DNA of 64,000 nucleotides from Candidatus Latescibacterota bacterium (GCA_965208835.1 OZ242358.1:1216001-1280000), one strand, 5' to 3'; shown: positions 17,677 to 53,950, numbered from the stretch's first letter. Translations and numbers: made by a program. Notes: a model not told the origin generated them from the sequence alone.

Positions 17677-17952
17677 GTGCAGAAGATTGACAAAGAGGAA
17701 TATCAGAAGCGTCTGGACAGGATCACGGAACTGTTCGCCGGAATGATCGCCCATGCCGATGAACTTTCAACCGTCCGGTGCCCCTACAAGAACCGTTTCG
17801 ACGAGTGTACCGCCAGGTTCGGCTGCAGAAATCAGCGGAGGCCGCGTCCGGGCGGAACGCTGCTGATGTGCGGTGGAGACGACAAGCTGGACTACCGCGG
17901 CGCGTGGGAAACGGAGACAGAACTTGGCGCATTCGTCGGGAGCGACGAATAG
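17677..17952 (+). CDS. Small Cys-rich hypothetical protein
   Basis: GTG start; RCPYKNRFDECTARFGCRN...MCGGDD (4 Cys); 5 bp before the ASKHA gene. Confidence 0.7.
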   Translation: MQKIDKEEYQKRLDRITELFAGMIAHADELSTVRCPYKNRFDECTARFGCRNQRRPRPGGTLLMCGGDDKLDYRGAWETETELGAFVGSDE

Positions 17953-17957
17953 TACGC

Positions 17958-19580: not shown

Positions 19581-19703
19581 ACGCAAGACGTAAGACGGGA
19601 GAAGAAATCCTCGCCGGGTATGTTATACCTTCTTGCCTCCGGCATGAGAGGAAGCCTTTCAAGGCAGGTCATCTCTACCCTCTTCCGTCTCCCGTCTTAC
19701 CGC
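19573..19703. mobile_element. Repeat family D copy 1
   Basis: ~130 bp; reverse-complement homolog of 56382-56511 and 27941-28070; ends CGGGTAGACG / CGTCTTACCGC. Confidence 0.8.
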
Positions 19704-19754
19704 TTCTAAGGGGCCGTGTGGCAAGGTCCCCCGCAAAAACACGAGTGAGTTCGC

Positions 19755-21356
19755 ATGGCGGCAACTTTAGGAAAGTCAGATCCAGCCGGCGTCGATGGGC
19801 AGAGACAGTCCCTGCGCCATTTGCTCGAGGAAACGGACGCGTTCGTCGTCTGCGTGGAACTGGTCAATTCCCGGGGCGTGATCACCGAACGCCGCGGGCG
19901 ACGCGTCCTCGACCTCGCGCGGGCGCTGGCCGACCACCCCGGCGTACACGCACTGAGCATCACGGACAATCCCGGCGGGAACGCCACAAACAGCCCGGAC
20001 GCGATGGGAATGGACCTGCTGGGCCGGGGCAAGGAAGTCATCATTCACCTGTCGTGCAAGGACTGGAACCGGAATGCGCTGCTCAGCCGGGGCTGGGAGC
20101 TGGCAAGCGAAGGATTCGAAAACGTGCTTGCGCTCTCCGGCGACTACCCCGCAACCGGATATCACGGGCAGGCGGGCGCCGTGTTCGATACGGATTCGGT
20201 CGGCCTCCTGAAGATGCTCTCAGAGATGAATTCAGGCATGCGGCTCGAAGGCGTCAGAGGCGATCAGGTCCTGAAGCCTACACGTTTCTTCCTCGGCGCG
20301 GTGGTAAACAACCACAAGCGATACGAACGCGAGGTGATGCCGCAGTACTTCAAGCTGGAAAAAAAGATCCGGAACGGCGCGGAGTTCATCATCAACCAGA
20401 TCGGGTACGACACCCGCAAGCAGCACGAACTGTTGAAGTACATGGCCCGTTGCGGCCTCCGCACACCGGCGATTGCAAACGTGTACGTGCTGAGCCCCGC
20501 CTCGGCCAGGTTCTTCCACGGAGGAAATATCCCCGGCGTGATCGTAACCGACGAGTTGCTTGAACTCACGGCGAAGCACGCCCGCTCCCGCGACAAGGGC
20601 AAGGCTTTCTTTCTGGAGTTCGCCGCGAAGCAGTGCGCAATAGCCCGGGGGTTGGGGTACCGCGGGGTGTACCTTGGGGGGCACCTGAAGTTCGAGGACT
20701 ATGCGCGGATCCTGGACATCTGCGGCGGCTACGGAGACGCGGACTGGAAAGACTTCGCTTCCGAGATTTGCTTCCAGCAGCCGGAAGAGTTCTTCTTTTT
20801 TGAACCAGACAGGGAAACGGGGCTGAGTTCGGACGAGGTCAACCGCGCGTATCGTCATTCGAAGCAACCCGAGGTGTTGCGGGCGGCCAGAAGCCGCGTA
20901 TCCACGGCCTACAAGATCAACCGCTTCGTGCACGAACAGGTCTTCGAGAAGGATCGTCCGGCCTTTCGCATCGGCAGAAGGTTCTTCGAGGCCGTCGACC
21001 GCGCCGGAAGCAGGGTGCGCAGGGCTTTGCACGGCGCCGAGCAGGCGGTGAAGATTCCGTGCTTCGATTGCCGGGACTGCGGCGATTGTTCGCTTCCGGA
21101 TATCGCGTTCCTCTGTCCCGAGTCGCAGTGCGTCAAGAATCAGCGAAACGGCCCCTGCGGCGGGACCCGCCGGGGACTGTGCGAAGTGGGGGACAAGGAA
21201 TGTATCTGGTCGCTGGCCTACGAACGCCTCAAGGCGTACGGCGAGGAAGAGACGATGCTGGACGGGCCGGTGGTCTTCAGAAACGGCGCCCTCAAAGGCA
21301 CCAGCGCCTGGGCGAACGCGTTTCTGGACCGGGACCACCACGCGCGCAAGGAGTGA
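19755..21356 (+). CDS. metF: Methylenetetrahydrofolate reductase with fused C-terminal MetV-like Cys-rich domain
   Basis: SITDNPGG, IHLSCKDWNR, LALSGD, KKIRNGAEFIINQIGYD; C-terminal CRDCGDC...CPESQC.K..RNGPCGG...CEV...CIW. Confidence 0.85.
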   Translation: MAATLGKSDPAGVDGQRQSLRHLLEETDAFVVCVELVNSRGVITERRGRRVLDLARALADHPGVHALSITDNPGGNATNSPDAMGMDLLGRGKEVIIHLSCKDWNRNALLSRGWELASEGFENVLALSGDYPATGYHGQAGAVFDTDSVGLLKMLSEMNSGMRLEGVRGDQVLKPTRFFLGAVVNNHKRYEREVMPQYFKLEKKIRNGAEFIINQIGYDTRKQHELLKYMARCGLRTPAIANVYVLSPASARFFHGGNIPGVIVTDELLELTAKHARSRDKGKAFFLEFAAKQCAIARGLGYRGVYLGGHLKFEDYARILDICGGYGDADWKDFASEICFQQPEEFFFFEPDRETGLSSDEVNRAYRHSKQPEVLRAARSRVSTAYKINRFVHEQVFEKDRPAFRIGRRFFEAVDRAGSRVRRALHGAEQAVKIPCFDCRDCGDCSLPDIAFLCPESQCVKNQRNGPCGGTRRGLCEVGDKECIWSLAYERLKAYGEEETMLDGPVVFRNGALKGTSAWANAFLDRDHHARKE

Positions 21357-21366
21357 GGGGAATACA

Positions 21367-22413
21367 ATGAAACTGGATGGACGGGACGGCGAGTTTATCG
21401 TCATCGGTGAAAACATCCACACGACACGGATTGTCCTGAGAAAGGGACGACTCGTCGTGAAGAACCCCGATGGGTTGGAGGCGGTCCGCTATTACGACAC
21501 CCGCAAGAAGCGGCGCTTCCTGACGATTCCCGACGATTTCAAGCGGACGCAGGACTATGAAGAAGGGCGCGTCAAGTACGTCAAGATCGCGGTGCAGGCG
21601 GCGATGTCCGGCCTCGCGCCACAGGCGGAAGACGGGCAGGCGTACCTGCACCGGATGATTCAGCGCCAGGTGGAAGCGGGAGCGGACTACCTGGATCTGA
21701 ACGTGGACGAGGTCTCACTGCGACTGGACGAACAGAAGAAGGCCATGCGATGGCTGGTGGGCGCCGTTCAGGAGGTAAGCCCCGTTCCGATATCCGTTGA
21801 CTCCTCCAATGTGGAGACCATTGGAGAAGGACTCGGGGCCTGCAACGGCGGGACTGGACGGCCGCTGCTGAACTCGGCCTCGCTGGAACGCCTGGAGGCG
21901 CTGGACCTGGCCTTGAGGTTCAACGCCAGGGTTGTCGTGACGGCCGCCGGCGAGAGCGGAATGCCCCAGGACGCGGAGGAGCGGGTCGAGAACGCGTCGC
22001 GGATGGTGGACGCGGCGCTGTCGAGAGGGATCGCGATCGAGGATATTTTCGTGGATGCCCTGGTCTTTCCGATATCGGTGGACGGCGGTTTCGGCAACCA
22101 TTGCTTCGAGGCCATTCGCAGGCTTCGAGCGGGATTCGGCCCAGGGATTCACGTCACGGGCGGATTCAGCAACGTTTCGTTCGGGCTGCCGTGCCGGCGC
22201 CTGATCAACGACGTGTTCACGATTCTGGCCGTCGAGGCCGGAGCCGACAGCGGGATCGTCGACCCGGTCACCAGCAGCCCGCAGCGTATATTCACCCTGG
22301 ACCGGGATACGGAACCGTACCGGCTCGCGGAAGACATGCTTCTGGGCAGGGATCGCATGTGCAAGGCCTTTCTGCGTGCGTATCGGAAGGGTGCGCTGGA
22401 CGCTTACCGTTAA
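21367..22413 (+). CDS. Pterin-binding methyltetrahydrofolate:corrinoid methyltransferase (AcsE / MetH pterin domain)
   Basis: IVIGENIH, GADYLDLNVD, PISVDSS, LLNS, IFVDALVFP, GGFSNVSFGLP motifs. Confidence 0.9.
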   Translation: MKLDGRDGEFIVIGENIHTTRIVLRKGRLVVKNPDGLEAVRYYDTRKKRRFLTIPDDFKRTQDYEEGRVKYVKIAVQAAMSGLAPQAEDGQAYLHRMIQRQVEAGADYLDLNVDEVSLRLDEQKKAMRWLVGAVQEVSPVPISVDSSNVETIGEGLGACNGGTGRPLLNSASLERLEALDLALRFNARVVVTAAGESGMPQDAEERVENASRMVDAALSRGIAIEDIFVDALVFPISVDGGFGNHCFEAIRRLRAGFGPGIHVTGGFSNVSFGLPCRRLINDVFTILAVEAGADSGIVDPVTSSPQRIFTLDRDTEPYRLAEDMLLGRDRMCKAFLRAYRKGALDAYR

Positions 22414-31858: not shown

Positions 31859-34246
31859 CTATTCAGCAGTTCCAAGGCGATAGCCGACGTTGCGTTCGCT
31901 GAAGATATACGTTGGGGCTTTTGCGTCGTCGCCCAGCTTGCGGCGGATGTTTTTAACCGTGGCGTGGACGGGTCGCCTGTCGTCGGAACGACGCCGGGTC
32001 CAGACACGATTCAACAGGTCCTTATGGAGAACGGTCCGGCCGGCATTGACGGAGAGTTCTTCGATTAACAGATACTCGATTCTGGTCAGCACCAACGCCC
32101 GTTCGCCAATGGTCACCCGCCGTCGGGCGTAATCGACCTGCAGCGCTCCCATCACAAATGGTTCTGATGGTACGTCCTTTCGAAGCGGTGTCCGCTTGCG
32201 CAGGGTCGCCCGGATTCTGGCCGTAAGTTCCGACGGCGAGAAGGGTTTGACAATGTAGTCGGTGGCGCCGCTGTCGAAGGCTCGGACAACGGCGTCTTCG
32301 TGCCCGTATGCCGAAAGGATAATTACAGGTATGTCAACTTTTCTTACGATGTCCTGCATCAACTGAATGCCGTCGCTGCCGGGCAGCACAAGGTCCATCA
32401 ACACGAGTTCGGGACTGTGTTGGTCCACAAAGAGCAGCGCTTCGGCAGGGTCACCGGTAACGACCGGTACGAAACCGGCACGCGACAGGGCTTCCCGTAC
32501 CCTGCGCAGCGTCAGCGGATCATCGTCCACCACAAGTACTGTATTGTTATTATCTGCCGATATTCGTGCATCAGCCGTGTCCGCAACTGGCAAGCGGCTG
32601 GACACCCTTCCTACATCCTCTGCGATCGGGATGGTGAAATTAAACCGGGATCCGGTCTCCAACCCGTCACTCTCTGCCCATATCCGGCCTCCGTGGGCCT
32701 CAACAATACCCTTGCAGATGGAAAGACCCCAGCTGGCTCCTGCTTCGTATCCAGGTACGGGGTCGCTGTCGCGCCGGGGGAATCTGCGAAAGAGGTGCGG
32801 CAGGTTTTCCGGAGACACGCCCTTTCCTTTGTCGATCACGCTAATCGCGACGTTGTCGTCTTCCTGAACCGCGGTAACTCGAATCGGAGAGTCCTGCGGT
32901 GAATTTCGTGCGGCGTTCGTCAGCAGATTCACTACAACCTGCACGACACGCCCGGCGTCCGCCATGATGAGGGAAAGGCCGGGGGCCAGTTCAATGTGAA
33001 TATTGTCTCTGTCCCATCCACTCAGAAAGGTGTTCCGGGCCTGATCCAGCAGTTCGGTGACAACCGTCGGAATGGGATTCACAATCAGTGTCCCGGTCTC
33101 GATGCGCGCCACGTCCAGCAGATCGTTTATCAGGACGTTCATCTGGTCTGCCTGCGTGTCTATGATGCGCAGGAACTGAACCATCTCCGCTTGGCGAGCA
33201 GGCACGGTGTCGGTCAGCGCCGTAGTCGTGGAACCCTTGATGGCGGCAAGCGGCGCCCGCAGTTCGTGGCTGACCATGGCCAGGAACTCCGCACGCATCC
33301 GCTCCATATCCTCCAGTTGCGTCGTGTCCTGTACAGTAACGACAAAGGATTCGACGCTGCCGTCATCCGAGCGAATGGGGGTTGCGTTCACGATGGCGGT
33401 CAGGCTCCTGCCGTCCGGGACGCTTACGACGATCTCCTCGGCGCGCACGATCTCGCCCGCGCTCAACGTCTCGATCAGCGGGAGTTTCTGCATTGACACT
33501 TCCCTTCCATCGGCTCGCTGGACGGTCAGGGCTCTAAGAATCTCGTCGCGGGATAGACTTTCGATCGCAAAGAAGTCCCTGATCCTGGCGGCCTCCCGGT
33601 TTATTGATTCAATCTTTCCGGTCGCGGCATCGAAGACCACGACGGCGACGGGAGACGTGTTGATCACGGCTTCCAGATCGGCTTTGGCTTTCTGCTCGTC
33701 GCGGTGCCGGCGTGCATTAGCGATGACCAACGCCGCCTGCGACGCGAACATCACCAGTGTATCTTCGTCTTCCTGAGTGAATGACGCCCCACCCTCCTTC
33801 TCGGCGAGATAGATGACGCCCACGGATTCCCCTCTGTGACGTACCGGCGCCGCCAGAAAGGTCAGGACATCGCCGACCGGTATGGGCGGACGGAATTCGG
33901 GAAGGCCCATCTCCCGGGTGTGGCTGTGAAAATCGCGCAGCCGCAGCGGCTCTCTGATTTTCTGCATCGCCGCGAAGAATCTCAGACCGTCCGGCATATT
34001 CCAGAACTGCCTGCTCTGTTCGGGTGTCATTCCCGACGCGACGCAATCCCGTGCCCGGCCCGTTACGTCAGTGAGCGTCATCACGCCGTATTTTGAGTGC
34101 GTCAGCACCCGCGCGCTGTCCAGGACCCCTTGCAACACCGTTTCGAAATCAAGACTCTCGTTGATGTGGAGGCTCGCCTCGCTCAATAGCGACAGGCGCT
34201 CCCGCAACGTCCTGATCTCTGCGTCAAGTTTTTCTGTGAGATTCAT
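31859..34246 (-). CDS. Cytoplasmic hybrid histidine kinase / response regulator GAF-PAS-HisKA-HATPase-REC-OmpR wHTH
   Basis: SHELRAPL H-box, NLLTNA, DKGKG, GLSIC..IVEAHGG; VLVVDDD, LMDLVLP, KPFS; LTRIEY..., IRRKLGDD, GYRL; ATG 34246 after GAGGAG. Confidence 0.92.
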   Translation of the reverse strand: MNLTEKLDAEIRTLRERLSLLSEASLHINESLDFETVLQGVLDSARVLTHSKYGVMTLTDVTGRARDCVASGMTPEQSRQFWNMPDGLRFFAAMQKIREPLRLRDFHSHTREMGLPEFRPPIPVGDVLTFLAAPVRHRGESVGVIYLAEKEGGASFTQEDEDTLVMFASQAALVIANARRHRDEQKAKADLEAVINTSPVAVVVFDAATGKIESINREAARIRDFFAIESLSRDEILRALTVQRADGREVSMQKLPLIETLSAGEIVRAEEIVVSVPDGRSLTAIVNATPIRSDDGSVESFVVTVQDTTQLEDMERMRAEFLAMVSHELRAPLAAIKGSTTTALTDTVPARQAEMVQFLRIIDTQADQMNVLINDLLDVARIETGTLIVNPIPTVVTELLDQARNTFLSGWDRDNIHIELAPGLSLIMADAGRVVQVVVNLLTNAARNSPQDSPIRVTAVQEDDNVAISVIDKGKGVSPENLPHLFRRFPRRDSDPVPGYEAGASWGLSICKGIVEAHGGRIWAESDGLETGSRFNFTIPIAEDVGRVSSRLPVADTADARISADNNNTVLVVDDDPLTLRRVREALSRAGFVPVVTGDPAEALLFVDQHSPELVLMDLVLPGSDGIQLMQDIVRKVDIPVIILSAYGHEDAVVRAFDSGATDYIVKPFSPSELTARIRATLRKRTPLRKDVPSEPFVMGALQVDYARRRVTIGERALVLTRIEYLLIEELSVNAGRTVLHKDLLNRVWTRRRSDDRRPVHATVKNIRRKLGDDAKAPTYIFSERNVGYRLGTAE

Positions 34247-34369
34247 TATCCTCTCCTCTCTTACAGACAAAAGCTTACCTGCAGACTCCCGATCGATGTC
34301 GAAAAGCGGAGGCACCGTTTCCAACCCTCAGATGTACTGGTATATGCCATTGTCGCGAAATGCCACAGG

Positions 34370-34713: not shown

Positions 34714-35931
34714 GTGTTATCAATAAAGAACGCCTCGTTAATCGCCGTTCTATGTCTGTTGATTACTTCAGGAATCGCGACGGCCGGTCCGAACGCGGAC
34801 GCGGTTCTGTCGCTCGACCTGATCGCCGATGGCGGTGCGGGCAATCAGAGGGACGACGGCGCGACGACCGGTGTTGTTTCGGGACAGGGCACAACCGTTG
34901 CAGCCGAAGTCTTCGCCAGAGGTGTGAGGACTTCGCTTAGGGGTATAATCATCAAGTTCAACTTTGATGCTTCGCTAATTGCCTTTATCGGAGCAGAAAA
35001 CAGTGCGTTTGCACTTTCGGTTCCGGAAGCGTCCGTCGGCGTGAACCTCGCCGCCACGTCGCCGGTGACATTACCGCCTTCCGGATTCCTGGCGCGTGCC
35101 GAGTTTGAAACGGTCGCTGACGTAACGGGCCGAGAGTTCTCCATTGGCATAGAAACGGTTACGCTTGCAGAAAACGTGACGTCGCAGGACGAACTCAAGA
35201 CAACAGCTACGATTATGTTCAATTCCACGCCGTCTCCGGACTTCGACGGTGACGGCACGGTAGGATTCTCAGACTTTGTGCTTTTCGCACGCAATTTCGG
35301 AACACAGGTCGGAGACGCAACATATGATGCGCGATTCGACCTGGATGTCGACGGCTCAGTTGGTTTTTCAGACTTTGTTGTATTCGCCCGCCAATTTGGA
35401 CAGTTCGTGGTTCGCGACAACCAACAGCCCGTGACCGTTGGCGCCATTGCCGCGCAGACCCTGACGGCGGGTGGTGATGACGCGACCGTGGATCTGTCGG
35501 ACAGCTTCAGTGATCCCGACGATGACCCATTGAAGTATTCGGCGAGTTCCAGTGATACCTCGGTGGCGGCGGTGTTGGTTACAGACAACATGCTGACGAT
35601 TGCGCCGAAGGAGGCCGGGAGCGCAACGGTGACCGTCACGGCGACCGACCCCGGTGGCTCGAGTGTCGAGCAGACGATTGATGTGACCGTGAGGGAATCC
35701 GGAGGCGGTGGCGCGAGCCAGAGGTGTACGGCGGGGCTGATGTTGAGACCGGGGGACAGTTGCCAGGGGTCCGGTTACAGCTTTCGCAACGAGGCGGGCG
35801 TTCTCATCGGACAGGGCAGCGTAGGTGGCATCTCGATAGACAATGCCCGATTCGGGGGCGGCAGCGTGCGATTAAACCAGCTGCACCTGACCAAAAGCGG
35901 CAATGTCTGGACGATTGTCAGCCTGCCATGA
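34714..35931 (+). CDS. Secreted protein: cohesin-like domain + dockerin/EF-hand-like pair + cadherin-like Ig domain + Cys C-terminal module
   Basis: GTG 34714 after AAGGAGG; signal peptide; PDFDGDGTVGFSDF...FDLDVDGSVGFSDF; NQQPVTVGAI..FSDPDDDPLKY..VTATDPGG; ends NVWTIVSLP. Confidence 0.8.
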   Translation: MLSIKNASLIAVLCLLITSGIATAGPNADAVLSLDLIADGGAGNQRDDGATTGVVSGQGTTVAAEVFARGVRTSLRGIIIKFNFDASLIAFIGAENSAFALSVPEASVGVNLAATSPVTLPPSGFLARAEFETVADVTGREFSIGIETVTLAENVTSQDELKTTATIMFNSTPSPDFDGDGTVGFSDFVLFARNFGTQVGDATYDARFDLDVDGSVGFSDFVVFARQFGQFVVRDNQQPVTVGAIAAQTLTAGGDDATVDLSDSFSDPDDDPLKYSASSSDTSVAAVLVTDNMLTIAPKEAGSATVTVTATDPGGSSVEQTIDVTVRESGGGGASQRCTAGLMLRPGDSCQGSGYSFRNEAGVLIGQGSVGGISIDNARFGGGSVRLNQLHLTKSGNVWTIVSLP

Positions 35932-36177
35932 ATCGAATCTACTGACGTTACCGCTATGGTCATCGCGGGTGCAGAGCATGTAAAACAAAAGGCGCCGTCC
36001 CTGGCTTCCGTTGAGCTAGCGATCCCACGATGAGGCAATCACCGGACATATGCGTTTCTGCAAGTATGCCGATGCGTATGGCACATCGGGCCGAAGCAGG
36101 ATGATGGTAACTGACATCGCCATTGCTATGAGGTAATCAGGCAGATAGACCTATTGGCGAGGCGTTAGGGGGACAAA

Positions 36178-44052: not shown

Positions 44053-46335
44053 ATGGAAATCCCGGTTGTAAATTTCAAGGGTCGAACAGCAATTGTCCTG
44101 GTATTGGCTATATACGGTTTCGACCTGACAAACAACTCGAATTTGGCTCACGCCGCGCCTGCACAGCCTGAAACACCAACGCTCTTCGTTGATTACGATG
44201 ACCGTGTGCTGGACAGCTACATCGGCGCCAGCGCTGAACTGACCGCTACCACGAATTCCGTTTCCGGCGCCGCGCGGTACGAGTGGGATATTCTGGACAA
44301 AACCGTTATGACCACGAGACCGTCGGTAACCAGGGGGGTTTCAGTATTCGGTTCTTCAACCACAGCATCGGTAAAGGTTCGGGCCGTCGATAGTGAGGGG
44401 AGCGCTGGTCCGTGGAGCAATACATCGTCACGCAGCATCTATTCGTCCGCGCCCCGGCCGAAGACGCCAGCCGTGAGTTTCAACAAAGAAGGCAATACAA
44501 TTGCAATTTCAGGTTATAAGTACACGAATGCCACGGAATACAGCATCAAGATCACCAATCCTCGCGGAGGCTCAACGAGAGAGACGGTAACGGAAACGGA
44601 GTACGCCTATGCCGTTTCATTGTCCGATCCCTCAGGTACCTGGAGGGTCTCCGTACAAGCCAGGACGGCCACACACCGCACCGCTTTCTCACGAAGCGCG
44701 ATTCTGGCCGTAAATGTGCCGGAACGGCCGGTGGAACTTGCGGCAGAAGCCGGCAACGGGCAGGTGACGCTCACCTGGAAAGACCCGAATGACGAGAGAA
44801 TTACCAAATACCAGGTGACAGTGGACTTTGGAGAGTGGAGAGACATTGAGGACAGCCACGCGTCGACAACCTCCCACACGGTTGAGCAGCTTACCAACGG
44901 TACGGAGTATCGTTTTCAGATCCGTGCGGTGAGTGACGGCGGCGCGAGCGAAGCGTCGGACACCGTATCGGCAACCCCGGTAGCCCTGCCCAAGCCTACC
45001 GGACTGGAAGCAGCATCCGACGACGGGCAGGTGACGCTCACGTGGGATGGCCCGGGAAATGCGAACATTGTGCACTATCAGTTGCGGGTGGACCGTGGGG
45101 AGTGGTCGAGGATGGAGGGCAGTCATGCAGGCACGACCAGCCACACGGTGAGGAATCTAAGGAACGGCACGGAATATCGTTTTCAGATCCGAGCAGTCAG
45201 CGTGGATGGTGTGGGAGAGGCGTCGGATCCGGTCACGGCGTTTCCCGGTTCCGCTCCTGAGTTAAGGGCATCCACGGAATCGCCCTTGACCGAAGCGACC
45301 CTCGCGGGAAGCGTGGTCAAGCTCATACTGAACGGGCGAACGTTTGAGCGATGGAACAGCGTCAGAAACAACGTCACAGTATCCGGCATCGACGGTGTGT
45401 CGTTCAGATCTACAACGGACGTGGAGCGCGTGAGCGATACGGAGGTGGCGGTAAAGCTGAGCTTCAGCGGCAATATCGATTCCGATACCACGCTGGTGTT
45501 CACCGCAGGCGCGGGTGCGATATCGGGCTACAACGGTCCGGCTCTCACAGCGCGGATATCGGTTGCCGCGGTAACAGAGACCTTAGTCGCGTCAACCGCG
45601 CAACCGTTGACGGAGGCAACACTGAACGGAAGCGTGGTGACGTTGACGCTGGGCAGCGGCACGTTTGAGCGATGGAATGACGTCAGAAATAACCTGAGGG
45701 TCTCGGGTATCGACGGTGTGAGTTTCAGGTCTTCGACGGACGTGGAGCGCGTGAGCGATACGGAGGTGACAGTCAAGCTGAGCTTCAGCGGCAATATCGA
45801 TTCCGATACCACGCTGGTCTTCACCGTAGGCGCGGGTGCGATATCGGGCTACAACGGTTCCGCCCTGACGGCAGAGATCTCGGTCACAGCCGACCACGAA
45901 GCGACCCCCGACTTCGACGGAGACGGGACGGTTGGCTTTCGGGACTTTTTGCTGTTTGCCAGTGTTTTCGGCACAAGCCGGGGCGATACCGAATACAGCG
46001 CGCGGTTCGATCTGGATGGAGACGATGCCGTCGGTTTCAGCGATTTTCTGATCTTCGCCGGGAGTTTCGGCAAAGACGTCACCTCATCCGGCGGTGACAA
46101 TGGGGGAGATGGCGGCAGCGGCCAGGCGTGCAACGTAGGGATGACTCTTGGTCCGGGAGAGGGATGCCAGGGCTCCGGATACAGTTTCCGGAACGACGCG
46201 GGCGTTCTTATCGGACAGGGTAACGTGGGTGGAATTTCGATAGAAAACGCCCGGTTCAGCGGCGGCAGTGTACGATTGAACCAGCTGCACCTGACCAGGA
46301 GCGGCAATGTCTGGACAATCGTGAGCCTGCCGTGA
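44053..46335 (+). CDS. Secreted fibronectin type III protein with two tandem Ig-like repeats, dockerin-like pair and C-terminal '...NVWTIVSLP' module
   Basis: FN3 motifs (GQVTLTW...LTNGTEYRFQIRAV) x2; two ~100-aa PLTEATL.GSVV..VERVSDTEV repeats; PDFDGDGTVGFRDF pair. Confidence 0.85.
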   Translation: MEIPVVNFKGRTAIVLVLAIYGFDLTNNSNLAHAAPAQPETPTLFVDYDDRVLDSYIGASAELTATTNSVSGAARYEWDILDKTVMTTRPSVTRGVSVFGSSTTASVKVRAVDSEGSAGPWSNTSSRSIYSSAPRPKTPAVSFNKEGNTIAISGYKYTNATEYSIKITNPRGGSTRETVTETEYAYAVSLSDPSGTWRVSVQARTATHRTAFSRSAILAVNVPERPVELAAEAGNGQVTLTWKDPNDERITKYQVTVDFGEWRDIEDSHASTTSHTVEQLTNGTEYRFQIRAVSDGGASEASDTVSATPVALPKPTGLEAASDDGQVTLTWDGPGNANIVHYQLRVDRGEWSRMEGSHAGTTSHTVRNLRNGTEYRFQIRAVSVDGVGEASDPVTAFPGSAPELRASTESPLTEATLAGSVVKLILNGRTFERWNSVRNNVTVSGIDGVSFRSTTDVERVSDTEVAVKLSFSGNIDSDTTLVFTAGAGAISGYNGPALTARISVAAVTETLVASTAQPLTEATLNGSVVTLTLGSGTFERWNDVRNNLRVSGIDGVSFRSSTDVERVSDTEVTVKLSFSGNIDSDTTLVFTVGAGAISGYNGSALTAEISVTADHEATPDFDGDGTVGFRDFLLFASVFGTSRGDTEYSARFDLDGDDAVGFSDFLIFAGSFGKDVTSSGGDNGGDGGSGQACNVGMTLGPGEGCQGSGYSFRNDAGVLIGQGNVGGISIENARFSGGSVRLNQLHLTRSGNVWTIVSLP

Positions 46336-46487
46336 CCATGGGGATCACGTCGTTTCCGGCACGACCGGAAGAATAATGCGGATTGTCGCTCGTGAAGTCC
46401 AGTGGACTGCCAGTGCCATTTGTCGCGGCGACGCAATAGAGATGGGATCTGCCGCATTACCATGGGCTTCCTTCCGATCCGTACCGT

Positions 46488-48236
46488 TCACAGATCAACC
46501 CTAACCTCCCCCTTGAACGCGGCGACCGATTCCCACCGCTGGACCACGCCGTTTCCATCGTTTTCGAACACGGCAAGTACCAGGTCCACGTTCGCTTTTC
46601 CATCCAGGCTGACGCACACCGACGTGCCGTCGGGCGTTGACGCGGTTGCAATCCACGACTCGTCCCGGGCGCGGGTATATTCGGCGGCTTCGTCGTGGCC
46701 CACCCCCCGGATAGCGAATCGTTCCGTCCGCTGCGCCACCAGCGACAACCACCGGTCGATCTCCTCCAGAGTCAGCACGCCGAACTTCTGCTCGTGGGTC
46801 GTGATCTCCGAGAAGAACCCGCTGTCCAGCGCCAGGCGGACCGAGCCGCCCGCCCGTTCCGCGGCCTTGTCCATATCATTGGTCGGATTGTCTCCTGCCC
46901 AGGTCGTACAGCCCGTCAGCACGTCGGGCTCCACGAGGTGGCGCGGGAGCATGGCGCCGATGTTGTACATCTCCGGGTCTTCGGGGACATAGTCATAGAA
47001 CAGGCTGTTGAGACCGTACGGCCACCAGTTGGGGAACAGCCGCTCCCACTTCACCTGTCCCAGGTGGTAGGTCGAATAGACGAAGGTCCGCCCCCTGGCC
47101 TTCAGGTAGGGAAGGACGCGCACGCCCACCTCGCCCCAGTGAAATGCGGCGCGGCGCGGCGGCTTCAGGCCCCTTTCATCGTACCAGTGGTCCACCCGCT
47201 GGAAGATTTCCTTCAGTTCAGCGTCGCTGTACTCGCCGATGCCGAAATCGAACGGGATCAGCCGGTAATAGTCGAAGGCATGCGCGTCCCAGTCCACCTG
47301 ACCGGCCTTGTATCGGCCGCGCATGAACGGCACCACTTCGTCCGGAACGAGGTTCAGGAAGCAGGAGATCATCGGCCGGTAACCGTGCCGGTTCATCACC
47401 TCCGTATAGCGGAAATCGTGGCGGCCCCTGCCGTCGTCCACCCGGATGGTCACGAAGGGTGGCATCATCTGCGCGACGAATGGCTTGCGCGCCGCCCAGA
47501 CGATGGCGCGCCAGAAGAACGCGTCCAGCCCCATCGCGTGGCCAAGAAACTCCTGGTGCCAGATGCGGGGCGAACAGGCAAATTGCACCGCCCGGCCGCT
47601 GCCGCATGCCCCGGCCAGCACGGCTGGAAACTGGTCCGGCTCGTAGGCCGTCCCCGGCACATTGTGGCGTGAGAAGATGAGCTGATCCTTGCCCATCGCA
47701 GCCTGCGCCAGCTCTACGACGTGCCGCCCCACGCGCTTGATTTGCGCAATGGTCACGGGTCGCTTCAGCCGGACCATGCTGCCCGCCTGCTGCGTCCAGT
47801 TGATGAAGTGGTCTTCGCCCCCGATACGCAGCAGGTCCGAAGCCATCGGGATCCGGTCAACCTCCAGCCCGAACAGCCGAAGCAGCGGCGGTTTGTACAG
47901 CCGCAGTTCGCCGTCGAAATTGACCAGGCCCATACCAGTTTCTTCCACGCCCGCGGTGAGCAGTTCCGTTTCCTCGTACGATAGGGATTCGCCCAGGCGC
48001 GCCTGTGCGATAACCGTCGCCGCCGAGCCTTCGAGCAGTCCGGTAGTCAGGGGCCCTGTGGCCAGGTCGTGAATTCTGAAAGGAAACCCGAAATGCTGTA
48101 AGGCAACCAGTACTGTCTGATCCACGATGCTCGTATCCGTGTAGCTTCCCCTGCTGTCCACGAGTACCAGCAGGGCCCGGTTCCCCGCGCTCTCACGCCG
48201 GGGGCGCTGCACCATTTCTCGTGGTGAGAATCGCAT
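46488..48236 (-). CDS. Hypothetical protein, possible polysaccharide-deacetylase-like domain
   Basis: 582-aa ORF with host-like codon use; FVTIRVDD and WDAH motifs resemble NodB/CE4 folds. Confidence 0.65.
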   Translation of the reverse strand: MRFSPREMVQRPRRESAGNRALLVLVDSRGSYTDTSIVDQTVLVALQHFGFPFRIHDLATGPLTTGLLEGSAATVIAQARLGESLSYEETELLTAGVEETGMGLVNFDGELRLYKPPLLRLFGLEVDRIPMASDLLRIGGEDHFINWTQQAGSMVRLKRPVTIAQIKRVGRHVVELAQAAMGKDQLIFSRHNVPGTAYEPDQFPAVLAGACGSGRAVQFACSPRIWHQEFLGHAMGLDAFFWRAIVWAARKPFVAQMMPPFVTIRVDDGRGRHDFRYTEVMNRHGYRPMISCFLNLVPDEVVPFMRGRYKAGQVDWDAHAFDYYRLIPFDFGIGEYSDAELKEIFQRVDHWYDERGLKPPRRAAFHWGEVGVRVLPYLKARGRTFVYSTYHLGQVKWERLFPNWWPYGLNSLFYDYVPEDPEMYNIGAMLPRHLVEPDVLTGCTTWAGDNPTNDMDKAAERAGGSVRLALDSGFFSEITTHEQKFGVLTLEEIDRWLSLVAQRTERFAIRGVGHDEAAEYTRARDESWIATASTPDGTSVCVSLDGKANVDLVLAVFENDGNGVVQRWESVAAFKGEVRVDL

Positions 48237-48380
48237 TGGATGTCCCCTGTTTGAAATATGCCATTCGGTTTGCCCTGATCGGCCGACCGGCCATTCCGGG
48301 CTTTGCGAAGAAGCCGTGGACGTGCCGCCACTCAGGTTTCGCCAAATGGAAGTCGCGCGGCGATGATCCTATGCTGCAGT

Positions 48381-48480
48381 AGATCCTTCGTCGGCCCTGG
48401 GGCCTCCTCTGGATGACAGTGGGAGGCAACATGCTTGACTATCGGCCGGCATGTCATTCAGAGCGGAGCGAAGAATCTCC
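48381..48480. repeat. REP-like half-sites (AGATCCTTCG...GGATGACA and TGTCATTC.GAGCG.AGCGAAGAATCT)
   Basis: Match a widespread intergenic palindromic repeat type recognised from memory; single occurrence in the window. Confidence 0.45.
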
Positions 48481-48593
48481 CGTCTTCGCGACTGTATGTG
48501 TAGCATATGGTCTTCGTAGACGAACCTGTGCGCGGAGACAGCGACCGCATCGAAGCGGGCAGACAGGAATGTACGCCCCACTAGACGCCAGCG

Positions 48594-49229
48594 TCAATCT
48601 GATTCCAAAGTCAGAACCCGGTTGATATCCGTCTCCGCGATTCGGCCGGGGCGGAGGATTCGTGGATGCCGGACGGAGACGTCGACGAGGGTGGAGGGAC
48701 GCGGATCAGGCGCCGTGCCGCCGTCCAGGATCAGGTCGACGCGGTCGCCAAGGACATTGGCGGCATCCTGCGCGCTTCGGGCGGGGGGCCTGCCCGACAG
48801 GTTGGCGCTGGTGCTGGTTATGGGGCCGCCGACATGGCGCACCAATGCGTTGGCGATCGTCGCGTCGGACATGCGGAGGGCTATTGTGGGGGTGGATCCG
48901 AGCAGGTGCTCAGGAAGGCCGGGCGAGGCGGCGAATACGAGCGTGAGGGGTCCGGGCCAGAATGCTTCCATAAGGGTTTCCGCGGCAAAAGGGACCTCTG
49001 CAGCAAGCGCTTCCAGGTCCTGCCTTCTCTGGATGAGCAGAATAAGCCCCTTTTCCGCCTCACGGCCCTTCAGCGCGAAGATACGGTTGAAGGCGGAAGG
49101 GTTGAAGGGATCGGCACCCAGACCGTATACGGTCTCTGTGGGGTAGACAATGACGCCTCCCGATTGTATCCGGTCAGCCGCCTGAGCGATTCCGGACTCA
49201 TCGGCCGCAATGAAGGATGCCGGTTTCAC
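48594..49229 (-). CDS. tsaC: L-threonylcarbamoyladenylate synthase (YrdC/Sua5)
   Basis: YPTETVYGLG, KGR, FWPGPLT, ITSTSANLSG, PSTLVD, ILRPG. Confidence 0.93.
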   Translation of the reverse strand: MKPASFIAADESGIAQAADRIQSGGVIVYPTETVYGLGADPFNPSAFNRIFALKGREAEKGLILLIQRRQDLEALAAEVPFAAETLMEAFWPGPLTLVFAASPGLPEHLLGSTPTIALRMSDATIANALVRHVGGPITSTSANLSGRPPARSAQDAANVLGDRVDLILDGGTAPDPRPSTLVDVSVRHPRILRPGRIAETDINRVLTLESD

Positions 49230-52200
49230 CGCCCGCCGCCGCTTCCCGGCCAGAATCGGACCGACGGCGGTCTCTTTTCGTACGCCGCGACAAAGGCAAG
49301 GAAATCCCCGAATCCAACCGTTCCGTTGCCGTCGAGGTCAAAGCGCATATCTGCGGAACCAAAGGCCTGTGCGAAGAGGATGAAGTCGGCAAAGTCGACG
49401 GCGCCGTCACTATTGAAGTCGGCTGCGCCGTCGGATGGGACTTCGGGAGGAGGCGGATCCGTCTCAGGCTCTTGCTGGTATTCGGCGGGATATTCGACGG
49501 TGAGTTCCAGGATACGATGATTGTTCGTATCGGCAATGTAGACCCTGCCGTCCGGACCGATTGCGACGCCTGATGGACCATTGAGCGAAGTCTCGGTTGC
49601 GGCGCCCCCGGGTTGATCGAATCCGGCGACACCCGTGCCCGCCACCGTCTGGATAATGCCCAGGTTCAGGTTGATAACACGCACCCGATGGTTTCCGGTA
49701 TCCGCAATATACAGATTCCCTTTGTTATCAACTGCAACATCGTCCGGGCTGCTCAGCACGGTTCTGGCGGCGGGTCCCCCGTCACGTGCATAACCCGACT
49801 CACCGGTTCCCGCGACGGTGGAAATCGTCCCGTCGGTATCCACCATGCGGATGCGATGGTTACCGGTGTCGGCGATGTACACTCGGCCATGTTCGTCTGC
49901 AGCCACGCCCCGGGGTCCGTTCAGCGCTGCCAGAGTGGCCGGGCCTCCGTCGCCTGAGAATCCCTCTTCAAAGCTTCCCGCAACGGTGGTGATTATGCCG
50001 GTGCTATCCAGCTTTCTGACTCGATGATTGAAGCGCTCGGCGATCCAGACGTTGCCCATCGAATCCGCGGCTACCCCCATGGGACCGGAGAGGTTCGCGT
50101 TGACGCCTGGGCGTCCGTCGCCGCCATAGCCGGGGATGTCCTTGCCGGCAAAGGAGAGGATATTACCGGTTTGGACATTGATCCGGCGCACGATATGTGC
50201 GCTTTGTTCGGCGATGATGAGATCTCCATCGGGCGTCAGTGCGAGGCCGCGGGGACCACCGAGGCTGGCGTCAGCGGCAGGCCCGCCGGTGCCGGTCGCA
50301 AATCCGATACCATTTCCGGCGATCGTTTGAATGGCGCCATCACTTCCAACCCTTCGGACCCTGTGGTTTCCCGTATCGGATATGTAAAACGTGCCCGACG
50401 CATCGACAGCGACGTTTCTCGGTGTGTTCAAGAATGCATCGGTCGCGGGGCCCCCGTCGCCCCCAAAACTCCCCTGTTCCCCGACCGTGCCGGCAACGGT
50501 GCGGAGATCCGTGTTGCGGGCACCGATTGGCGGCAGCAGGTTGATAGTGATCCTTTCGGGAGGAAGTCCTTCCAATCGCGCAAATGCGACGACGTCACCT
50601 GGCGTTGTCCCTGCCTGAAAGCGGATCGTCGCCAGTCCGTCCCGTACGGCAACCGAGTTGCCGCCGACGAAAACACCGTCACCGGACTCGACGCCGAATA
50701 TCAGGAGCCGGTTGTTGATTAGCAGGGCTTCGCCCCGGGCGTCCAGGAACCGAGCGATAATTTCGATCTGGGCCTCCCCGTTGGCCGCCAGCGCGCCTGC
50801 CGCCGCTTCCAGCGCAATCCGATCGGGTGGGGGCGGCGTGGCTTCGGTCAGGTCCAGCACCGTGTTCGCAGCGATGTTGTACATTCGCTGAGCGATGCCC
50901 GAAGGCCATCGAACCGTGAGTGTGTCGACTCTTTCGGCGTCGCCAAGGCCGAATGCCGCGGTAAGGGCGTCTTGCGACAGATAGGATGCGCCGCCCGTGA
51001 TTTCACGAATCGCCCGGCGTCCTTCGAAGGCAATTTCGAATCGGGTGCCGATGGCGTCGGAACTGCTTTTCGTGCCGCGCGGGCGAATGGCCAGCCAGTT
51101 ACCGTTGGACTCCTGATTCTGGAAAAGATAGTCACCGCTGTCTTGCACGGCCACGAAGATGTCCAGTCCGCCGTCGCCGTTGAAGTCCGCCAGCGCTACA
51201 CCCCGGCTGTTGGCACCGCCGGCGACGCGGAAAGAATCGGCAACGTCTATAAACGTCTCGCCGTCGTTACGGAAGAGGTTGTTCTTCTGTCCTGCGTTGG
51301 ACACGTAGAGATCCAGGTCGCTGTCGTTGTCGAAATCGCCCCAGACGGCGCCCCTGCTGCGTGCCGTGTCCGGGCCCGTCACATTGAAGCTCGCGCTGGA
51401 TTCCAGGAACTGACCGCTGGAATTGACATAAAGACGGTTGCCTTCTTCGTAGTATGACACGTAGAGATCCAGGTCTCCGTCGTTATCGAAGTCTCCCCAA
51501 CTTGCACCGAAACTGGGGCCGCCCAACCCCGCTTCCTCCACGCCGGCCTCGGACGTGACATCCACAAAACTGCCCCCATCGTTTCGGAATAGCCTGTTGG
51601 GCCCGCTGTTGGCGAGAAAGAGGTCCGGATCGCCGTCGCTGTCATAGTCCGCCCAGGCGGGCTGTAGACTGCTGTTGGCGTCGGCGAGACCGGTCTCCGC
51701 GGCGGCTTCCACAAAGCCGGCGCCTTCATTGCGATAGAAACGGTTCTCGCCGAAGTTGACCACGTAAAGGTCGGGGTCGCCGTCCCGGTCTACGTCCGCC
51801 CACGCAGCCCCGTATCCGTCTCCGCCGTCGTCCACCCCGGCTTCAGCAGCGACATCGGTGAAGTGGTTGCCGTCGTTTCGGTACAGCCGGTTCGGCTGTC
51901 CGTAGTTGGTGACGTAGAGGTCCAAGTCACCGTCGCCGTCATAGTCTGCCCAGGCAGCTGCGCTCCCGTCGCCGTCGTCCGCGCCGGCCACGCCGGCAGG
52001 AGCGGAAAGCTCGATAAACCGGCTACCCTCGTTCCGGTAGAGCAGATTGGACTGCAGGCTGCGTACCAAATAGAGATCGGGGTCGCCGTCGCTGTCGTAA
52101 TCCGCCCACGCGGCGCCGAACCCCGTACCCAGGTCCGCCATGCCCAGATCCTCCGCCGCATCGACGAATCCGCCGGGTTTGGAGGGCCGGCCCACGCCCT

Positions 52201-53950
52201 GGACGCGGATGGCTTTCTCAGGATCATCGGGATCGTTGCTGAAGAGCGTGAGTACCGCACGCTGGATCCCCTCCTGCGCAGGACGGAAGACAACGTCCAC
52301 GGTCCGTCTCTGACTCGACGGAATGCGCAGGGTGTCGCCGAGACCAATGGAGAACTGCTCGGTGTCCGACAGCTCGGAACGGTAAACGGTGAGTACGCCG
52401 GCGCCCAGATTCGCCACGCGTAACACGAATACCCGATCGTGACCGATGAACGTCCGATCGAATTCGATGCTTTCGGGAAACACGCCAATGTCGGGCGCCG
52501 CGCCGGTCCCCGAGAGTGTGACGGTGAGGGTTGGATGCCAGGGGTCATTGGCACTGATCGTAAGCCGTCCTGCAACGACGCCCTCTGATCGGGGGCTGAA
52601 CCTGACTCGGATTTCAGACTGTTCGTACGGATCGATTTCGACCGGGAAATCGTCGAGCAGTATGAACGCGGCCTGGTCGGTCGTGGCGTCGTCCAGCGTG
52701 AGCGTTCTCGCGCCGAGATTCTCAATGGTAATCGTACGGGTTTCCTGATCGCCGACGACGACCGGCTGAAACTCGATACTGGTGGTCGTCGTACGGAGGA
52801 CGGGCGAGCGGAAGGCAGGGTCGATCAGTTTTCGGATGAGACTGTTGCCCGTATCGGCGATGATGAGATCGCCGTCCGGGGCAAGCCCCACGCGAGTGGG
52901 TTCGCGGAGTTCGGCGAGCGGAGCGGCCCCCCCCTCACCGGCGTTTCCGGCGATGCCCGTCCCTGCGAGGGTGACGATGACTCCTGAATTGGGGTCCACG
53001 GCACGAACACGGTTGTTGCCGGTATCTGATATATACAGGGTTCCGTCGTCGCCGACGGCCACGCCGCCTGGCAGATTGAGCCGGGCGCCGGTGGCCGGGC
53101 CGCCGTCGCCCGAGAATCCGCCGCCACCGCCGAAAACGGGACCGCGGCCGGCCACGGTGGTGATGATGCCCGTCTCCGCGTCTACGAGGCGGATGCGATA
53201 ATTGTTGAAGTCCGCGATAAAGACGTTGCCTTCCCCGTCCACGGCGACGTCTTCAACGGTCATGCCTGCCGCAGCCGCGGGTCCGTCATCGCCGCCGAAA
53301 GAGAATTCTCCACTACCCGCAAGCGTGTTGATGACGCCGGTGGCGGCGTCGATTCTGCGCACGCGATTGTTTCCCTGTCCCTGTCCATCCAGCCCGTCGG
53401 CGATATAAAGCCCACCACGGGGGCCCACTGCCAGGGCGACGATTTCACCGAGTACCGCAGAGAGCGCCGGGCCTCCATCACCGTCGAAACCGAACTCTCC
53501 ATTGCCGGCGATGGTGGTGATTATCCCCGTGGCGGCGTCGATGCGCCGGATGCGCCGGTTGCCCGTATCGCCGACATATACGTTGCCGGCCTCGTCGACT
53601 GCAACGCCCTGGGGCCTGTCCAGACGGGCTTCGCTGGCGGGTCCGCCGTCGCCCGCGAAACCGGATTCTCCGGTTCCGGCTGCGGTCGTGACCAGTCCAG
53701 TGACCGCATCCACCCTGCGGATGCGATGGGTTCCCGTATCGGCGATATAGACGTGGCCGTCGGCGTCTGTGGCGGCGCCCAGGGGGAGACTGAGTGCGAG
53801 ATCGGTTGCGGGGATATTCTCACCTTCCCGGTCCCCGCCGCCCGCAATGGTGACAAGGGTACCCCGGCGTTGGGCGAAAGATGCTTCAGCCAGCGCGAGC
53901 AGTACACCAAGGATGAACAGCGTTCTGTGGTTATTTCGAATGAGGTGCAT
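49226..53950 (-). CDS. Giant secreted protein: NHL propeller, 2x ASH/choice-of-anchor-D Ig, FG-GAP/VCBS repeats, ASPIC/UnbV, invasin-like Ig, second NHL propeller, C-terminal dockerin-like pair
   Basis: YIADTGNHRIR / GDGGPA repeats; AAWADYD.DGD.DLY repeats; GGASYLSQD..FGLG..VRWPSG; ADFNSDGAVDFADF...FDLDGNGTVGFGDF. Confidence 0.9.
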   Translation of the reverse strand: MHLIRNNHRTLFILGVLLALAEASFAQRRGTLVTIAGGGDREGENIPATDLALSLPLGAATDADGHVYIADTGTHRIRRVDAVTGLVTTAAGTGESGFAGDGGPASEARLDRPQGVAVDEAGNVYVGDTGNRRIRRIDAATGIITTIAGNGEFGFDGDGGPALSAVLGEIVALAVGPRGGLYIADGLDGQGQGNNRVRRIDAATGVINTLAGSGEFSFGGDDGPAAAAGMTVEDVAVDGEGNVFIADFNNYRIRLVDAETGIITTVAGRGPVFGGGGGFSGDGGPATGARLNLPGGVAVGDDGTLYISDTGNNRVRAVDPNSGVIVTLAGTGIAGNAGEGGAAPLAELREPTRVGLAPDGDLIIADTGNSLIRKLIDPAFRSPVLRTTTTSIEFQPVVVGDQETRTITIENLGARTLTLDDATTDQAAFILLDDFPVEIDPYEQSEIRVRFSPRSEGVVAGRLTISANDPWHPTLTVTLSGTGAAPDIGVFPESIEFDRTFIGHDRVFVLRVANLGAGVLTVYRSELSDTEQFSIGLGDTLRIPSSQRRTVDVVFRPAQEGIQRAVLTLFSNDPDDPEKAIRVQGVGRPSKPGGFVDAAEDLGMADLGTGFGAAWADYDSDGDPDLYLVRSLQSNLLYRNEGSRFIELSAPAGVAGADDGDGSAAAWADYDGDGDLDLYVTNYGQPNRLYRNDGNHFTDVAAEAGVDDGGDGYGAAWADVDRDGDPDLYVVNFGENRFYRNEGAGFVEAAAETGLADANSSLQPAWADYDSDGDPDLFLANSGPNRLFRNDGGSFVDVTSEAGVEEAGLGGPSFGASWGDFDNDGDLDLYVSYYEEGNRLYVNSSGQFLESSASFNVTGPDTARSRGAVWGDFDNDSDLDLYVSNAGQKNNLFRNDGETFIDVADSFRVAGGANSRGVALADFNGDGGLDIFVAVQDSGDYLFQNQESNGNWLAIRPRGTKSSSDAIGTRFEIAFEGRRAIREITGGASYLSQDALTAAFGLGDAERVDTLTVRWPSGIAQRMYNIAANTVLDLTEATPPPPDRIALEAAAGALAANGEAQIEIIARFLDARGEALLINNRLLIFGVESGDGVFVGGNSVAVRDGLATIRFQAGTTPGDVVAFARLEGLPPERITINLLPPIGARNTDLRTVAGTVGEQGSFGGDGGPATDAFLNTPRNVAVDASGTFYISDTGNHRVRRVGSDGAIQTIAGNGIGFATGTGGPAADASLGGPRGLALTPDGDLIIAEQSAHIVRRINVQTGNILSFAGKDIPGYGGDGRPGVNANLSGPMGVAADSMGNVWIAERFNHRVRKLDSTGIITTVAGSFEEGFSGDGGPATLAALNGPRGVAADEHGRVYIADTGNHRIRMVDTDGTISTVAGTGESGYARDGGPAARTVLSSPDDVAVDNKGNLYIADTGNHRVRVINLNLGIIQTVAGTGVAGFDQPGGAATETSLNGPSGVAIGPDGRVYIADTNNHRILELTVEYPAEYQQEPETDPPPPEVPSDGAADFNSDGAVDFADFILFAQAFGSADMRFDLDGNGTVGFGDFLAFVAAYEKRPPSVRFWPGSGGGR

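Follow-up and report, generated by a model that had tools for sequence, protein, structure and literature searches.

The genome of Candidatus Latescibacterota bacterium carries, in a stretch of 64,000 nucleotides (GCA_965208835.1 OZ242358.1:1216001-1280000; hereinafter the window), a region at 34714-53950 in which open reading frame (ORF) calling finds seven sizeable genes. Five of these code for proteins in which a dockerin-like calcium-loop module is joined to diverse other domains, and one of the five additionally has an N-terminal domain with a predicted cohesin fold. All five start with a hydrophobic, signal-peptide-like segment (read by eye). Here we describe these modules, the family to which they belong and the case for their acting as a cohesin-dockerin-type assembly system.

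Genes with dockerin-like modules

Gene 1 (34714-35931, plus strand) combines a signal-peptide-like N-terminus, the cohesin-like domain, a long-type dockerin (the subtypes are defined below), a Big_9 immunoglobulin (Ig) domain (26.5 bits) and a C-terminal domain of 76 residues. Its start is a GTG at 34714 with AAAGGAGGA upstream, in agreement with the start of its closest short homologue, P0003. The cohesin-like β-sandwich occupies 34795-35238 (217 bits with our own hidden Markov model, HMM), and the dockerin, at 35215-35412, begins six residues past it. Gene 2 (36178-38679, plus strand) has an N-terminal long-type dockerin (36307-36507), an array of leucine-rich repeats (LRR) and a leishmanolysin-like HExxH domain (HEVGH at 37996), while gene 4 (40871-43597, plus strand) has an N-terminal long-type dockerin (41003-41203), four CARDB stretches and a second leishmanolysin-like HExxH domain (HEIAH at 43109). 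Gene 5 (44035-46335, plus strand) codes for two fibronectin type III (fn3) domains, internal repeats, a long-type dockerin (45886-46086) and a copy of the gene 1 C-terminal domain (46105-46335). Finally, gene 7 (49226-53950, minus strand) displays NHL propellers, ASH Ig domains, FG-GAP_3 and ASPIC/UnbV, with a short-type dockerin (49262-49444) near its C-terminus. Genes 3 and 6 are taken up below with the other elements of the region.

The dockerin-like modules

A regular expression for the calcium loop with an acidic residue at position 12, run over six frames of the whole window, returned 11 matches. Five modules account for ten of these through their paired loops, at 35239/35338, 36331/36430, 41027/41126, 45910/46009 and, on the minus strand, 49420/49339, and the eleventh is a lone half module (39917-39955); no loop match lies outside 35239-49420 in any frame of the window. 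Each of the five modules contains two tandem loops of the form D-x-D/N-x-D/N-G ... D, with the last aspartate at position 12, and they align over 68 columns with 16 invariant positions and 67% mean column identity. The five duplicated calcium-loop modules that a first-pass annotation, made from the sequence alone, had reported are thus present where it had placed them.

That annotation had further taken the modules to be dockerin-like, a view which both profile searches and structure prediction uphold. A profile of the five modules run against the sequences of the PDB retrieves four dockerin-bearing chains on top, matched over the full module: 2y3n_B (E=3.6e-10, profile positions 9-66), 4u3s_B (1.3e-9), 4wi0_B (6.3e-9) and 5k39_B (5.4e-7). 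Calmodulins follow from 9.8e-6, mostly spanning about half of the module. In a model of the first two domains of gene 1 (34795-35415), helices at residues 158-167 and 191-200 come after the loops starting at 149 and 182, and neither loop has an entering helix. A helix after each loop without an entering helix is the dockerin arrangement, unlike that of the canonical EF-hand. Taken alone, the gene 1 module reaches 22.7 bits with Pfam Dockerin_1, under its cut-off of 22.9. From the profile and the model we conclude that the modules of the window are dockerin-like and predict that they bind calcium.

A cohesin-fold domain at the head of gene 1

The β-rich domain noted in the first-pass annotation at 34795-35223 is a real and conserved entity: a phmmer search of 1.84 billion representatives finds 176 homologues at E<=1e-3, including 74 at E<=1e-30. 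The AlphaFold2 (AF2) model of the cohesin-like domain, built with a 31-row alignment, is all-β with 10 strands over 148 residues and has a predicted local distance difference test score (pLDDT) of 95.5 and a predicted template modeling score (pTM) of 0.89. Foldseek comparison of this model with the PDB yields 66 matches at E<=1e-3, of which those listed at ranks 1-22 are without exception cohesins (E 1e-5 to 1.5e-4, TMq 0.48-0.61, identity 11-19%), the first non-cohesin standing at rank 23. The cohesins matched come from Clostridium acetobutylicum, C. perfringens, Acetivibrio cellulolyticus, Ruminococcus flavefaciens and others.

Within the wider family, sequence comparison reaches Pfam Cohesin in a few members. 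With 32 scanned, P0099 exceeds the cut-off of 24.1 with 28.3 bits, and P0016 reaches 23.2 bits; at E<=1 the family is seen in 4 of 31 members. The two-domain model of gene 1 (pLDDT 91.3, pTM 0.78) has as its best PDB match 3kcp_A (E=1.2e-6, root-mean-square deviation, rmsd, 24 Å), titled as a multimodular C. thermocellum component, which we take to be the cohesin-X-dockerin end of scaffoldin; the size of the deviation indicates that the modules match and that their arrangement differs. From the models we assign a cohesin fold to the N-terminal domain of gene 1. The earlier proposal of a cohesin-like domain accordingly stands with respect to fold and not with respect to sequence matches of the window copy in Pfam and the PDB (see below).

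Family size and architecture

Among the 150 homologues of the cohesin-like domain that were listed, 101 also have a dockerin, and 90 of the 103 with at least 300 residues have both modules. Related loci were collected with a five-sequence alignment from one genome per species, the best 80 of 110 confirmed places giving 69 loci in 29 assemblies, with 57-76% identity to the cohesin-like domain of the window. By their titles the assemblies are mostly Candidatus Latescibacterota or uncultured Latescibacteria, with three from Gemmatimonadota and one from an uncultured bacterium.

Our own HMMs of both modules, run over the stop-to-stop ORFs of the 69 loci and the window with overlaps removed, identify 218 unique ORFs: 84 with a cohesin-like domain and a dockerin, 126 with a dockerin only and eight with a cohesin-like domain only, numbers that show clustering rather than genome-wide ratios since the loci were picked for having a cohesin-like gene. 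In 65 of the 84 two-module ORFs the dockerin begins no more than 10 residues past the cohesin-like domain. Two cohesin-like copies are present in 11 ORFs, and the maximum per ORF is two in the loci and three in the database representatives. The head of gene 1, that is, a signal peptide, a cohesin-fold domain, a linker of about six residues and a long-type dockerin, is the family standard. Judged by sequence, the cohesin-like and dockerin modules together thus represent a large Latescibacterota family.

Two dockerin subtypes

The first-pass annotation had treated the five modules as one class; alignment of 189 non-identical full-length dockerin modules from the loci and the window instead separates two subtypes with strict positional rules. 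The long type has a six-residue spacer between the repeats, with the consensus QGDxxY, and the short type is devoid of it. All 82 modules found together with a cohesin-like domain in the same ORF are of the long type, and the 107 modules of dockerin-only ORFs comprise 43 long and 64 short ones. Every one of the 64 short modules ends within 25 residues of the stop codon and none occurs with a cohesin-like domain. The 43 long modules without such a domain are more variably placed, 22 being N-proximal, 16 C-terminal and five internal. In the window, genes 1, 2, 4 and 5 have the long type and gene 7 a somewhat divergent version of the short type.

The short modules are highly conserved: 25 copies taken from many genomes have a mean column identity of 76% and the consensus TDFNGDGRTDFxDFFLFADAYGSTDARFDLDGNGTVDFADFFxFVDAFG. 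The NCBIfam model NF041540 (dockerin_GC) matches all 25 short modules tested. The isolated gene 7 module scores 31.1 bits with this model (cut-off 29), and the whole gene 7 protein, at 22.1 bits, falls below the cut-off. Long-type modules score about 13 bits (13.1 for that of gene 2).

Cargo domains

The domains to which the dockerins of the window are attached are those named in the first-pass annotation: LRR and HExxH in gene 2, CARDB and HExxH in gene 4, fn3 in gene 5, and NHL, FG-GAP_3, ASPIC/UnbV and ASH Ig in gene 7. Its M8 protease assignment has a Pfam match beneath the threshold: against Peptidase_M8 (PF01457) the C-terminal parts of genes 2 and 4 score 14.1 and 15.5 bits, with the cut-off at 21, and their relatives P0001 and P0002 reach 20.1 and 20.9 bits. 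In both genes the HExxH motif (HEVGH and HEIAH, respectively) is followed 61 residues downstream by a GxHW motif, presumably the site of the third metal ligand, and the metalloprotease domain finds no relative among PDB sequences. We therefore describe these domains as leishmanolysin-like, by their sequence features, and do not call them members of M8. The LRR array of gene 2 also matches the internalin models of NCBIfam (InlA E=2.8e-56, at 191 bits against a cut-off of 1600), which is a likeness of repeat type and not membership.

Among the dockerin-only ORFs of the loci, 36 of 103 were scanned under strict thresholds, with up to 25 families listed for each protein. The 20 of 63 short-type ORFs scanned (E<=1e-12) contain CARDB arrays, WD40 with LRR, LDL-receptor class B propellers with LRR, and cadherin-like domains with GLUG, one ORF being without a match. 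The 16 of 40 long-type ORFs without a cohesin-like domain (E<=1e-15) contain CARDB, WD40, LRR and PKD, and three of them combine Peptidase_M60 with WD40. These three proteins, with the enhancin-like peptidase and a long-type dockerin, are encoded at L037:1219-5925, L009:4864-9570 and L012:4576-8364. The representatives of the cohesin-like domain that were scanned further show Peptidase_S8, PD40 and PPC. Glycoside hydrolase, lyase and carbohydrate-binding families are absent from the Pfam and NCBIfam results for the five window genes and from the families listed for the 36 dockerin-only ORFs at their strict thresholds. As far as the cargo of these window genes and ORFs goes, the suggestion that the system is non-cellulosomal is supported.

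Shared C-terminal domain, remnants and neighboring genes

The 76-residue C-terminal domain is common to genes 1 and 5 (35701-35931 and 46105-46335; repeat D7, 78% DNA identity) and ends in ...SGNVWTIVSLP. It also occurs at the extreme C-terminus of three ORFs of related loci (L009:13837-15147, L024:9743-14200 and L052:9686-11977) and finds no lead in Pfam, NCBIfam or the Atlas. As a guess, we regard it as a candidate for a role in sorting or anchoring. A type IX secretion system (T9SS)-type sorting domain was considered, and nothing supports this for the window copy.

Remnants of both this domain and the short-type dockerin are scattered between genes 2 and 4. The first, at 38679-38860 (plus strand), adjoins the stop codon of gene 2 and derives from the shared C-terminal domain, as indicated by repeats D17 (94% to 35746-35798, 53 bases of gene 1) and D6 (81%) and by jackhmmer (E=3.3e-21). 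Two further remnants belong to a direct repeat of 159 bases (D13, 77% identity, 39923-40081 and 40467-40625), each copy of which has the last half of a short-type dockerin with its stop codon and, after it, the beginning of a small ORF of lipoprotein-like character. The half-dockerins lie at 39905-39982 (23.7 bits with our own HMM, stopping at the stop codon) and 40464-40526, both on the plus strand. Of the two copies only the first runs into an intact ORF (39998-40357, plus strand), which has a lipobox-like ...AYAC motif (read by eye), relatives at 62-79% identity in six ORFs of related loci and no family match in Pfam or NCBIfam. The island thus shows decay and recombination. Neither these remnants nor the shared C-terminal domain had been noted in the first-pass annotation.

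Gene 3 (38899-39726, plus strand) codes for a conserved hypothetical protein with a hydrophobic N-terminal segment and no match in Pfam or NCBIfam scans; in L009, an ORF 77% identical to it is found downstream of the one with the shared C-terminal domain. Gene 6 (46488-48236, minus strand), located between genes 5 and 7, codes for a protein of 582 residues with no obvious signal peptide and no match in Pfam or NCBIfam, and the 69 loci contain nothing related to it. In the Atlas it comes nearest (score 0.99) to a hypothetical-protein cluster that is most frequent in Latescibacterota, and further clusters have Polysacc_deac_1 in 19-68% of their members.

Divergent from gene 1 is a hybrid histidine kinase/response regulator (31859-34324, minus strand), a single chain in which Pfam recognizes GAF, PAS, HisKA, HATPase and receiver domains as well as a DNA-binding output domain, Trans_reg_C. 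In L024 and L042, ORFs 58-60% identical to it are found near the cohesin-like match and on the strand opposite to it, and this kinase might possibly regulate the island. Farther away in the window, at 15500-22413 (plus strand), is a run of genes for corrinoid-dependent methyl transfer, whose products are a URO-D-like methyltransferase, a B12-binding protein, a RACo-type reductive activator, an MTHFR-like protein and pterin-binding proteins.

Candidate anchors are present among more distant relatives. Thirteen of the representatives listed have at least 300 residues and a cohesin-like domain without a dockerin; six of these (P0058, P0088, P0124, P0140, P0142 and P0146), with one or two cohesin-like domains each, end in ...LLK. 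Pfam Por_Secre_tail, the T9SS sorting tail, is present in all three of the ...LLK proteins scanned (P0058, P0140 and P0146). Hence, anchored cohesin-like proteins without a dockerin plausibly exist in the wider family, and they would be candidates for sockets held at the surface in other lineages.

A predicted socket-and-plug system and its alternatives

Cohesin-dockerin pairing is the best-understood route to large extracellular bacterial machines. We propose, with the chances evenly balanced, that the region is an island of a large, lineage-specific and non-cellulosomal cohesin-dockerin-type system, probably of Latescibacterota, which works by socket-plug assembly. Putatively secreted multidomain proteins with binding repeats (LRR, CARDB, fn3, NHL and FG-GAP) or leishmanolysin-like domains are each tagged with a two-loop, dockerin-like module. 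The cohesin-like domain would provide the socket for the dockerin modules of other proteins, with calcium present, and cargo proteins would in this way be joined into extracellular hetero-oligomers. In these the two-module proteins would be adaptors, and the highly conserved short C-terminal dockerins may serve as a generic plug, if theirs is the subtype that fits the socket. Such assemblies might be displayed on the cell surface and take part in contact with a host.

Binding was addressed by predicting the complex of the cohesin-like domain with the long-type module of gene 2 and two calcium ions. The ipSAE score is 0.38 (runs 0.45, 0.38 and 0.36), as compared to 0.01 for the best of three controls; the runs share at least 97% of their contacts, with a partner pLDDT of at least 84. 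This passes the mark, which in the calibration admitted 116 of the 157 solved complexes and 2 among the 215 mismatched pairs. The tool itself rates the outcome of this multimer check, of the kind suggested in the first-pass annotation, as "weak support". We read it as a modest rise in the likelihood of binding, and it is silent on the preferred subtype.

Several observations weigh against the proposal. On the cohesin side, the window domain matches no Pfam family at E<=10, and is therefore below the gathering score of PF00963, and neither phmmer with this domain nor a 12-member family profile finds a match among PDB sequences; because of this, the cohesin call for the window copy rests on the predicted fold, with TM 0.48-0.61 and 11-19% identity. 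On the dockerin side, genes 1, 2 and 4 score 17.4, 17.7 and 18.7 bits with Pfam Dockerin_1 (PF00404), below its cut-off of 22.9, and the family is not listed for genes 5 and 7 at E<=0.01. A profile of the short type run against the PDB places calmodulins (6.5e-7) slightly before a dockerin (1.6e-6), which makes the identity of this subtype less secure by sequence. Further, the window has one cohesin-like domain for five intact dockerins, so that most partners, if any, would be encoded elsewhere, and Pfam and NCBIfam scans of the window find no S-layer homology (SLH) domain, sortase signal, T9SS tail or gene 1 lipobox as an anchor. The complex prediction has its own weaknesses: scores up to 0.60 constitute a weak band, to which no more than 18 of the 157 solved complexes belong along with the two mismatches that pass, and the calibration is rough, as our own alignments and the riding ligand differ from the calibration set. 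Moreover, cohesin and dockerin being a textbook pair, the pass may reflect likeness to solved complexes. Lastly, the pTM of 0.78 for the single-chain model would fit a dockerin that packs in cis against the cohesin next to it, leaving no free socket.

Some of these points bear on a somewhat unlikely alternative, in which the modules do not pair at all. The dockerin-like module would then be a calcium tag for folding, stability, export or anchoring, and the cohesin-like domain a β-sandwich spacer or a binder of some other ligand. This would agree with the confinement of the short type to the extreme C-terminus, as is usual for sorting signals, with the match of all 25 short modules to a model named "GC-type dockerin domain-anchored protein" in NCBIfam, and with a short-type profile that is inseparable from EF-hand loops when compared to the PDB. 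It would also agree with the excess of dockerin-only ORFs (126) over cohesin-like ones (92) even in loci chosen for a cohesin-like gene. Yet the two modules are linked in 84 of these 92 ORFs and in 90 of the 103 listed representatives of at least 300 residues, a frequency that is hard to explain if their functions are unrelated. Also speaking for pairing are the best fold matches, which are cohesins solved in complex with dockerins, and, weakly, the complex prediction.

We regard as unlikely a second alternative, which accepts pairing and confines it to a single chain. Here the cohesin-like domain and the adjoining long dockerin would form a closed head in cis, for stabilization or for recognition by an export or anchoring machine, with neither chaining nor a scaffold, and the dockerin-only proteins would use partners encoded elsewhere or none. 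The tight linker (at most 10 residues in 65 of the 84 ORFs), the restriction of all 82 cohesin-linked modules to one subtype and a two-domain model whose pLDDT of 91.3 and pTM of 0.78 are high for two independent domains are all as such a head would lead one to expect. However, the mean pLDDT of the five models ranges from 84.4 to 91.3, the trans prediction passed its mark, if weakly, and 43 long modules, including those of genes 2, 4 and 5, occur without any cohesin-like domain, implying that the long module also works with no partner in cis. Finally, a true cellulosome-type machine that degrades polysaccharides is very improbable and is rejected for this locus: a passage of PMC7081726 does speak of "extracellular, cellulosome-affiliated enzymes" in Latescibacteria, but the cargo listed for the window genes and the 36 ORFs scanned consists of repeats and M8-like or M60 peptidases without carbohydrate-active families, and no ORF resembles a many-cohesin scaffoldin (at most two copies in the loci and three in the listed representatives).

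Returning to the socket-plug proposal, the first-pass interpretation is borne out in part, namely in the dockerin-like modules, the cohesin fold and the non-cellulosomal character, with the binding itself weakly supported and with surface display, a host role and chaining into a scaffold as its conjectural elements. A bolder version, in which we place little confidence, would have Latescibacterota combine eukaryote-like binding domains with metalloproteases directed at mucin or matrix in extracellular assemblies, built by means of a cohesin-dockerin code in two tiers. In this scheme, the short dockerin would be a universal plug and the socket proteins would be joined to each other or to an anchor via their long dockerins, giving an adhesion and proteolysis machine for an animal host or particles that follows cellulosome logic without polysaccharide breakdown.

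Non-cellulosomal cohesin and dockerin modules are already known, and to our knowledge their purpose outside cellulosomes is mostly unknown. The present family is heavily expanded, with at least 84 genes for both socket and plug and 126 for the plug only in the 69 loci and the window. If the modules pair, many repeat proteins that are now orphans could be assigned to defined complexes, and there would be a testable handle on how these uncultured bacteria present adhesins and proteases. Protein engineering would also gain a new plug-socket pair that is compact and orthogonal. Without pairing, the short C-terminal module probably serves as a signal for sorting or anchoring, itself worth defining.

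Comparison with known systems

Latescibacteria have been linked to cellulosomes before: passages in two citing papers, one of them PMC7081726, attribute cellulosome-affiliated enzymes or dockerins to them after Farag et al. 2017. The text of Youssef et al. 2015 (PMC4454575) contains none of the words cellulosome, dockerin, cohesin and scaffoldin. Dockerin-tagged peptidases are described from cellulosome producers (PMC12484212). LRR, NHL, WD40 and FN3 proteins are reported from sponge-associated Latescibacterota genomes (PMC12993501). The tags described here sit on these same eukaryote-like types of protein, whereas the words dockerin, cohesin and cellulosome have zero occurrences in that paper, which thus does not connect its repeat proteins with such a tag. 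The titles and the starts of abstracts listed in literature searches on Latescibacter, Poribacteria and sponge symbionts describe no such cohesin-dockerin system, and the phrase "GC-type dockerin" does not occur in the literature searched. With respect to the NCBIfam family of that name, NF041540, the short subtype is a member by score and the long subtype matches it weakly.

The closest structural parallel is the C. thermocellum scaffoldin end 3kcp_A, in which a cohesin fold likewise precedes a two-loop dockerin within a single chain. In contrast to it, the two modules here have no X module between them, are separated by a linker of about six residues and form an N-terminal rather than a C-terminal head. 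The identity to solved cohesins is 11-19%, and the arrangement of the domains differs (rmsd 24 Å). Cellulosomes possess a hierarchy of type I and type II dockerins, and the two dockerin classes found here suggest a comparable hierarchy. The present system differs from cellulosomes in that no carbohydrate-active cargo was found in the window genes and the 36 ORFs scanned, nor an SLH anchor in the window. The organism is probably of the Gram-negative type, as the window encodes an OEP-family outer-membrane efflux protein.

Cohesins from outside cellulosomes are likewise among the fold matches, namely 2xdh from Archaeoglobus fulgidus and 2vo8, 2jh2 and 2w1n from glycoside hydrolases of C. perfringens (ranks 2, 10, 20 and 49). 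The A. fulgidus protein has a cohesin and a dockerin in one chain, and the cohesin modules of C. perfringens assemble host-directed enzymes. As compared to these, the Latescibacterota family stands out by its many paralogues per genome, its eukaryote-like repeats and metalloproteases and its two dockerin subtypes. What appears to be new is the tight N-terminal head of cohesin and dockerin, the strict placement of two dockerin subtypes and the link of these modules to eukaryote-like proteins.

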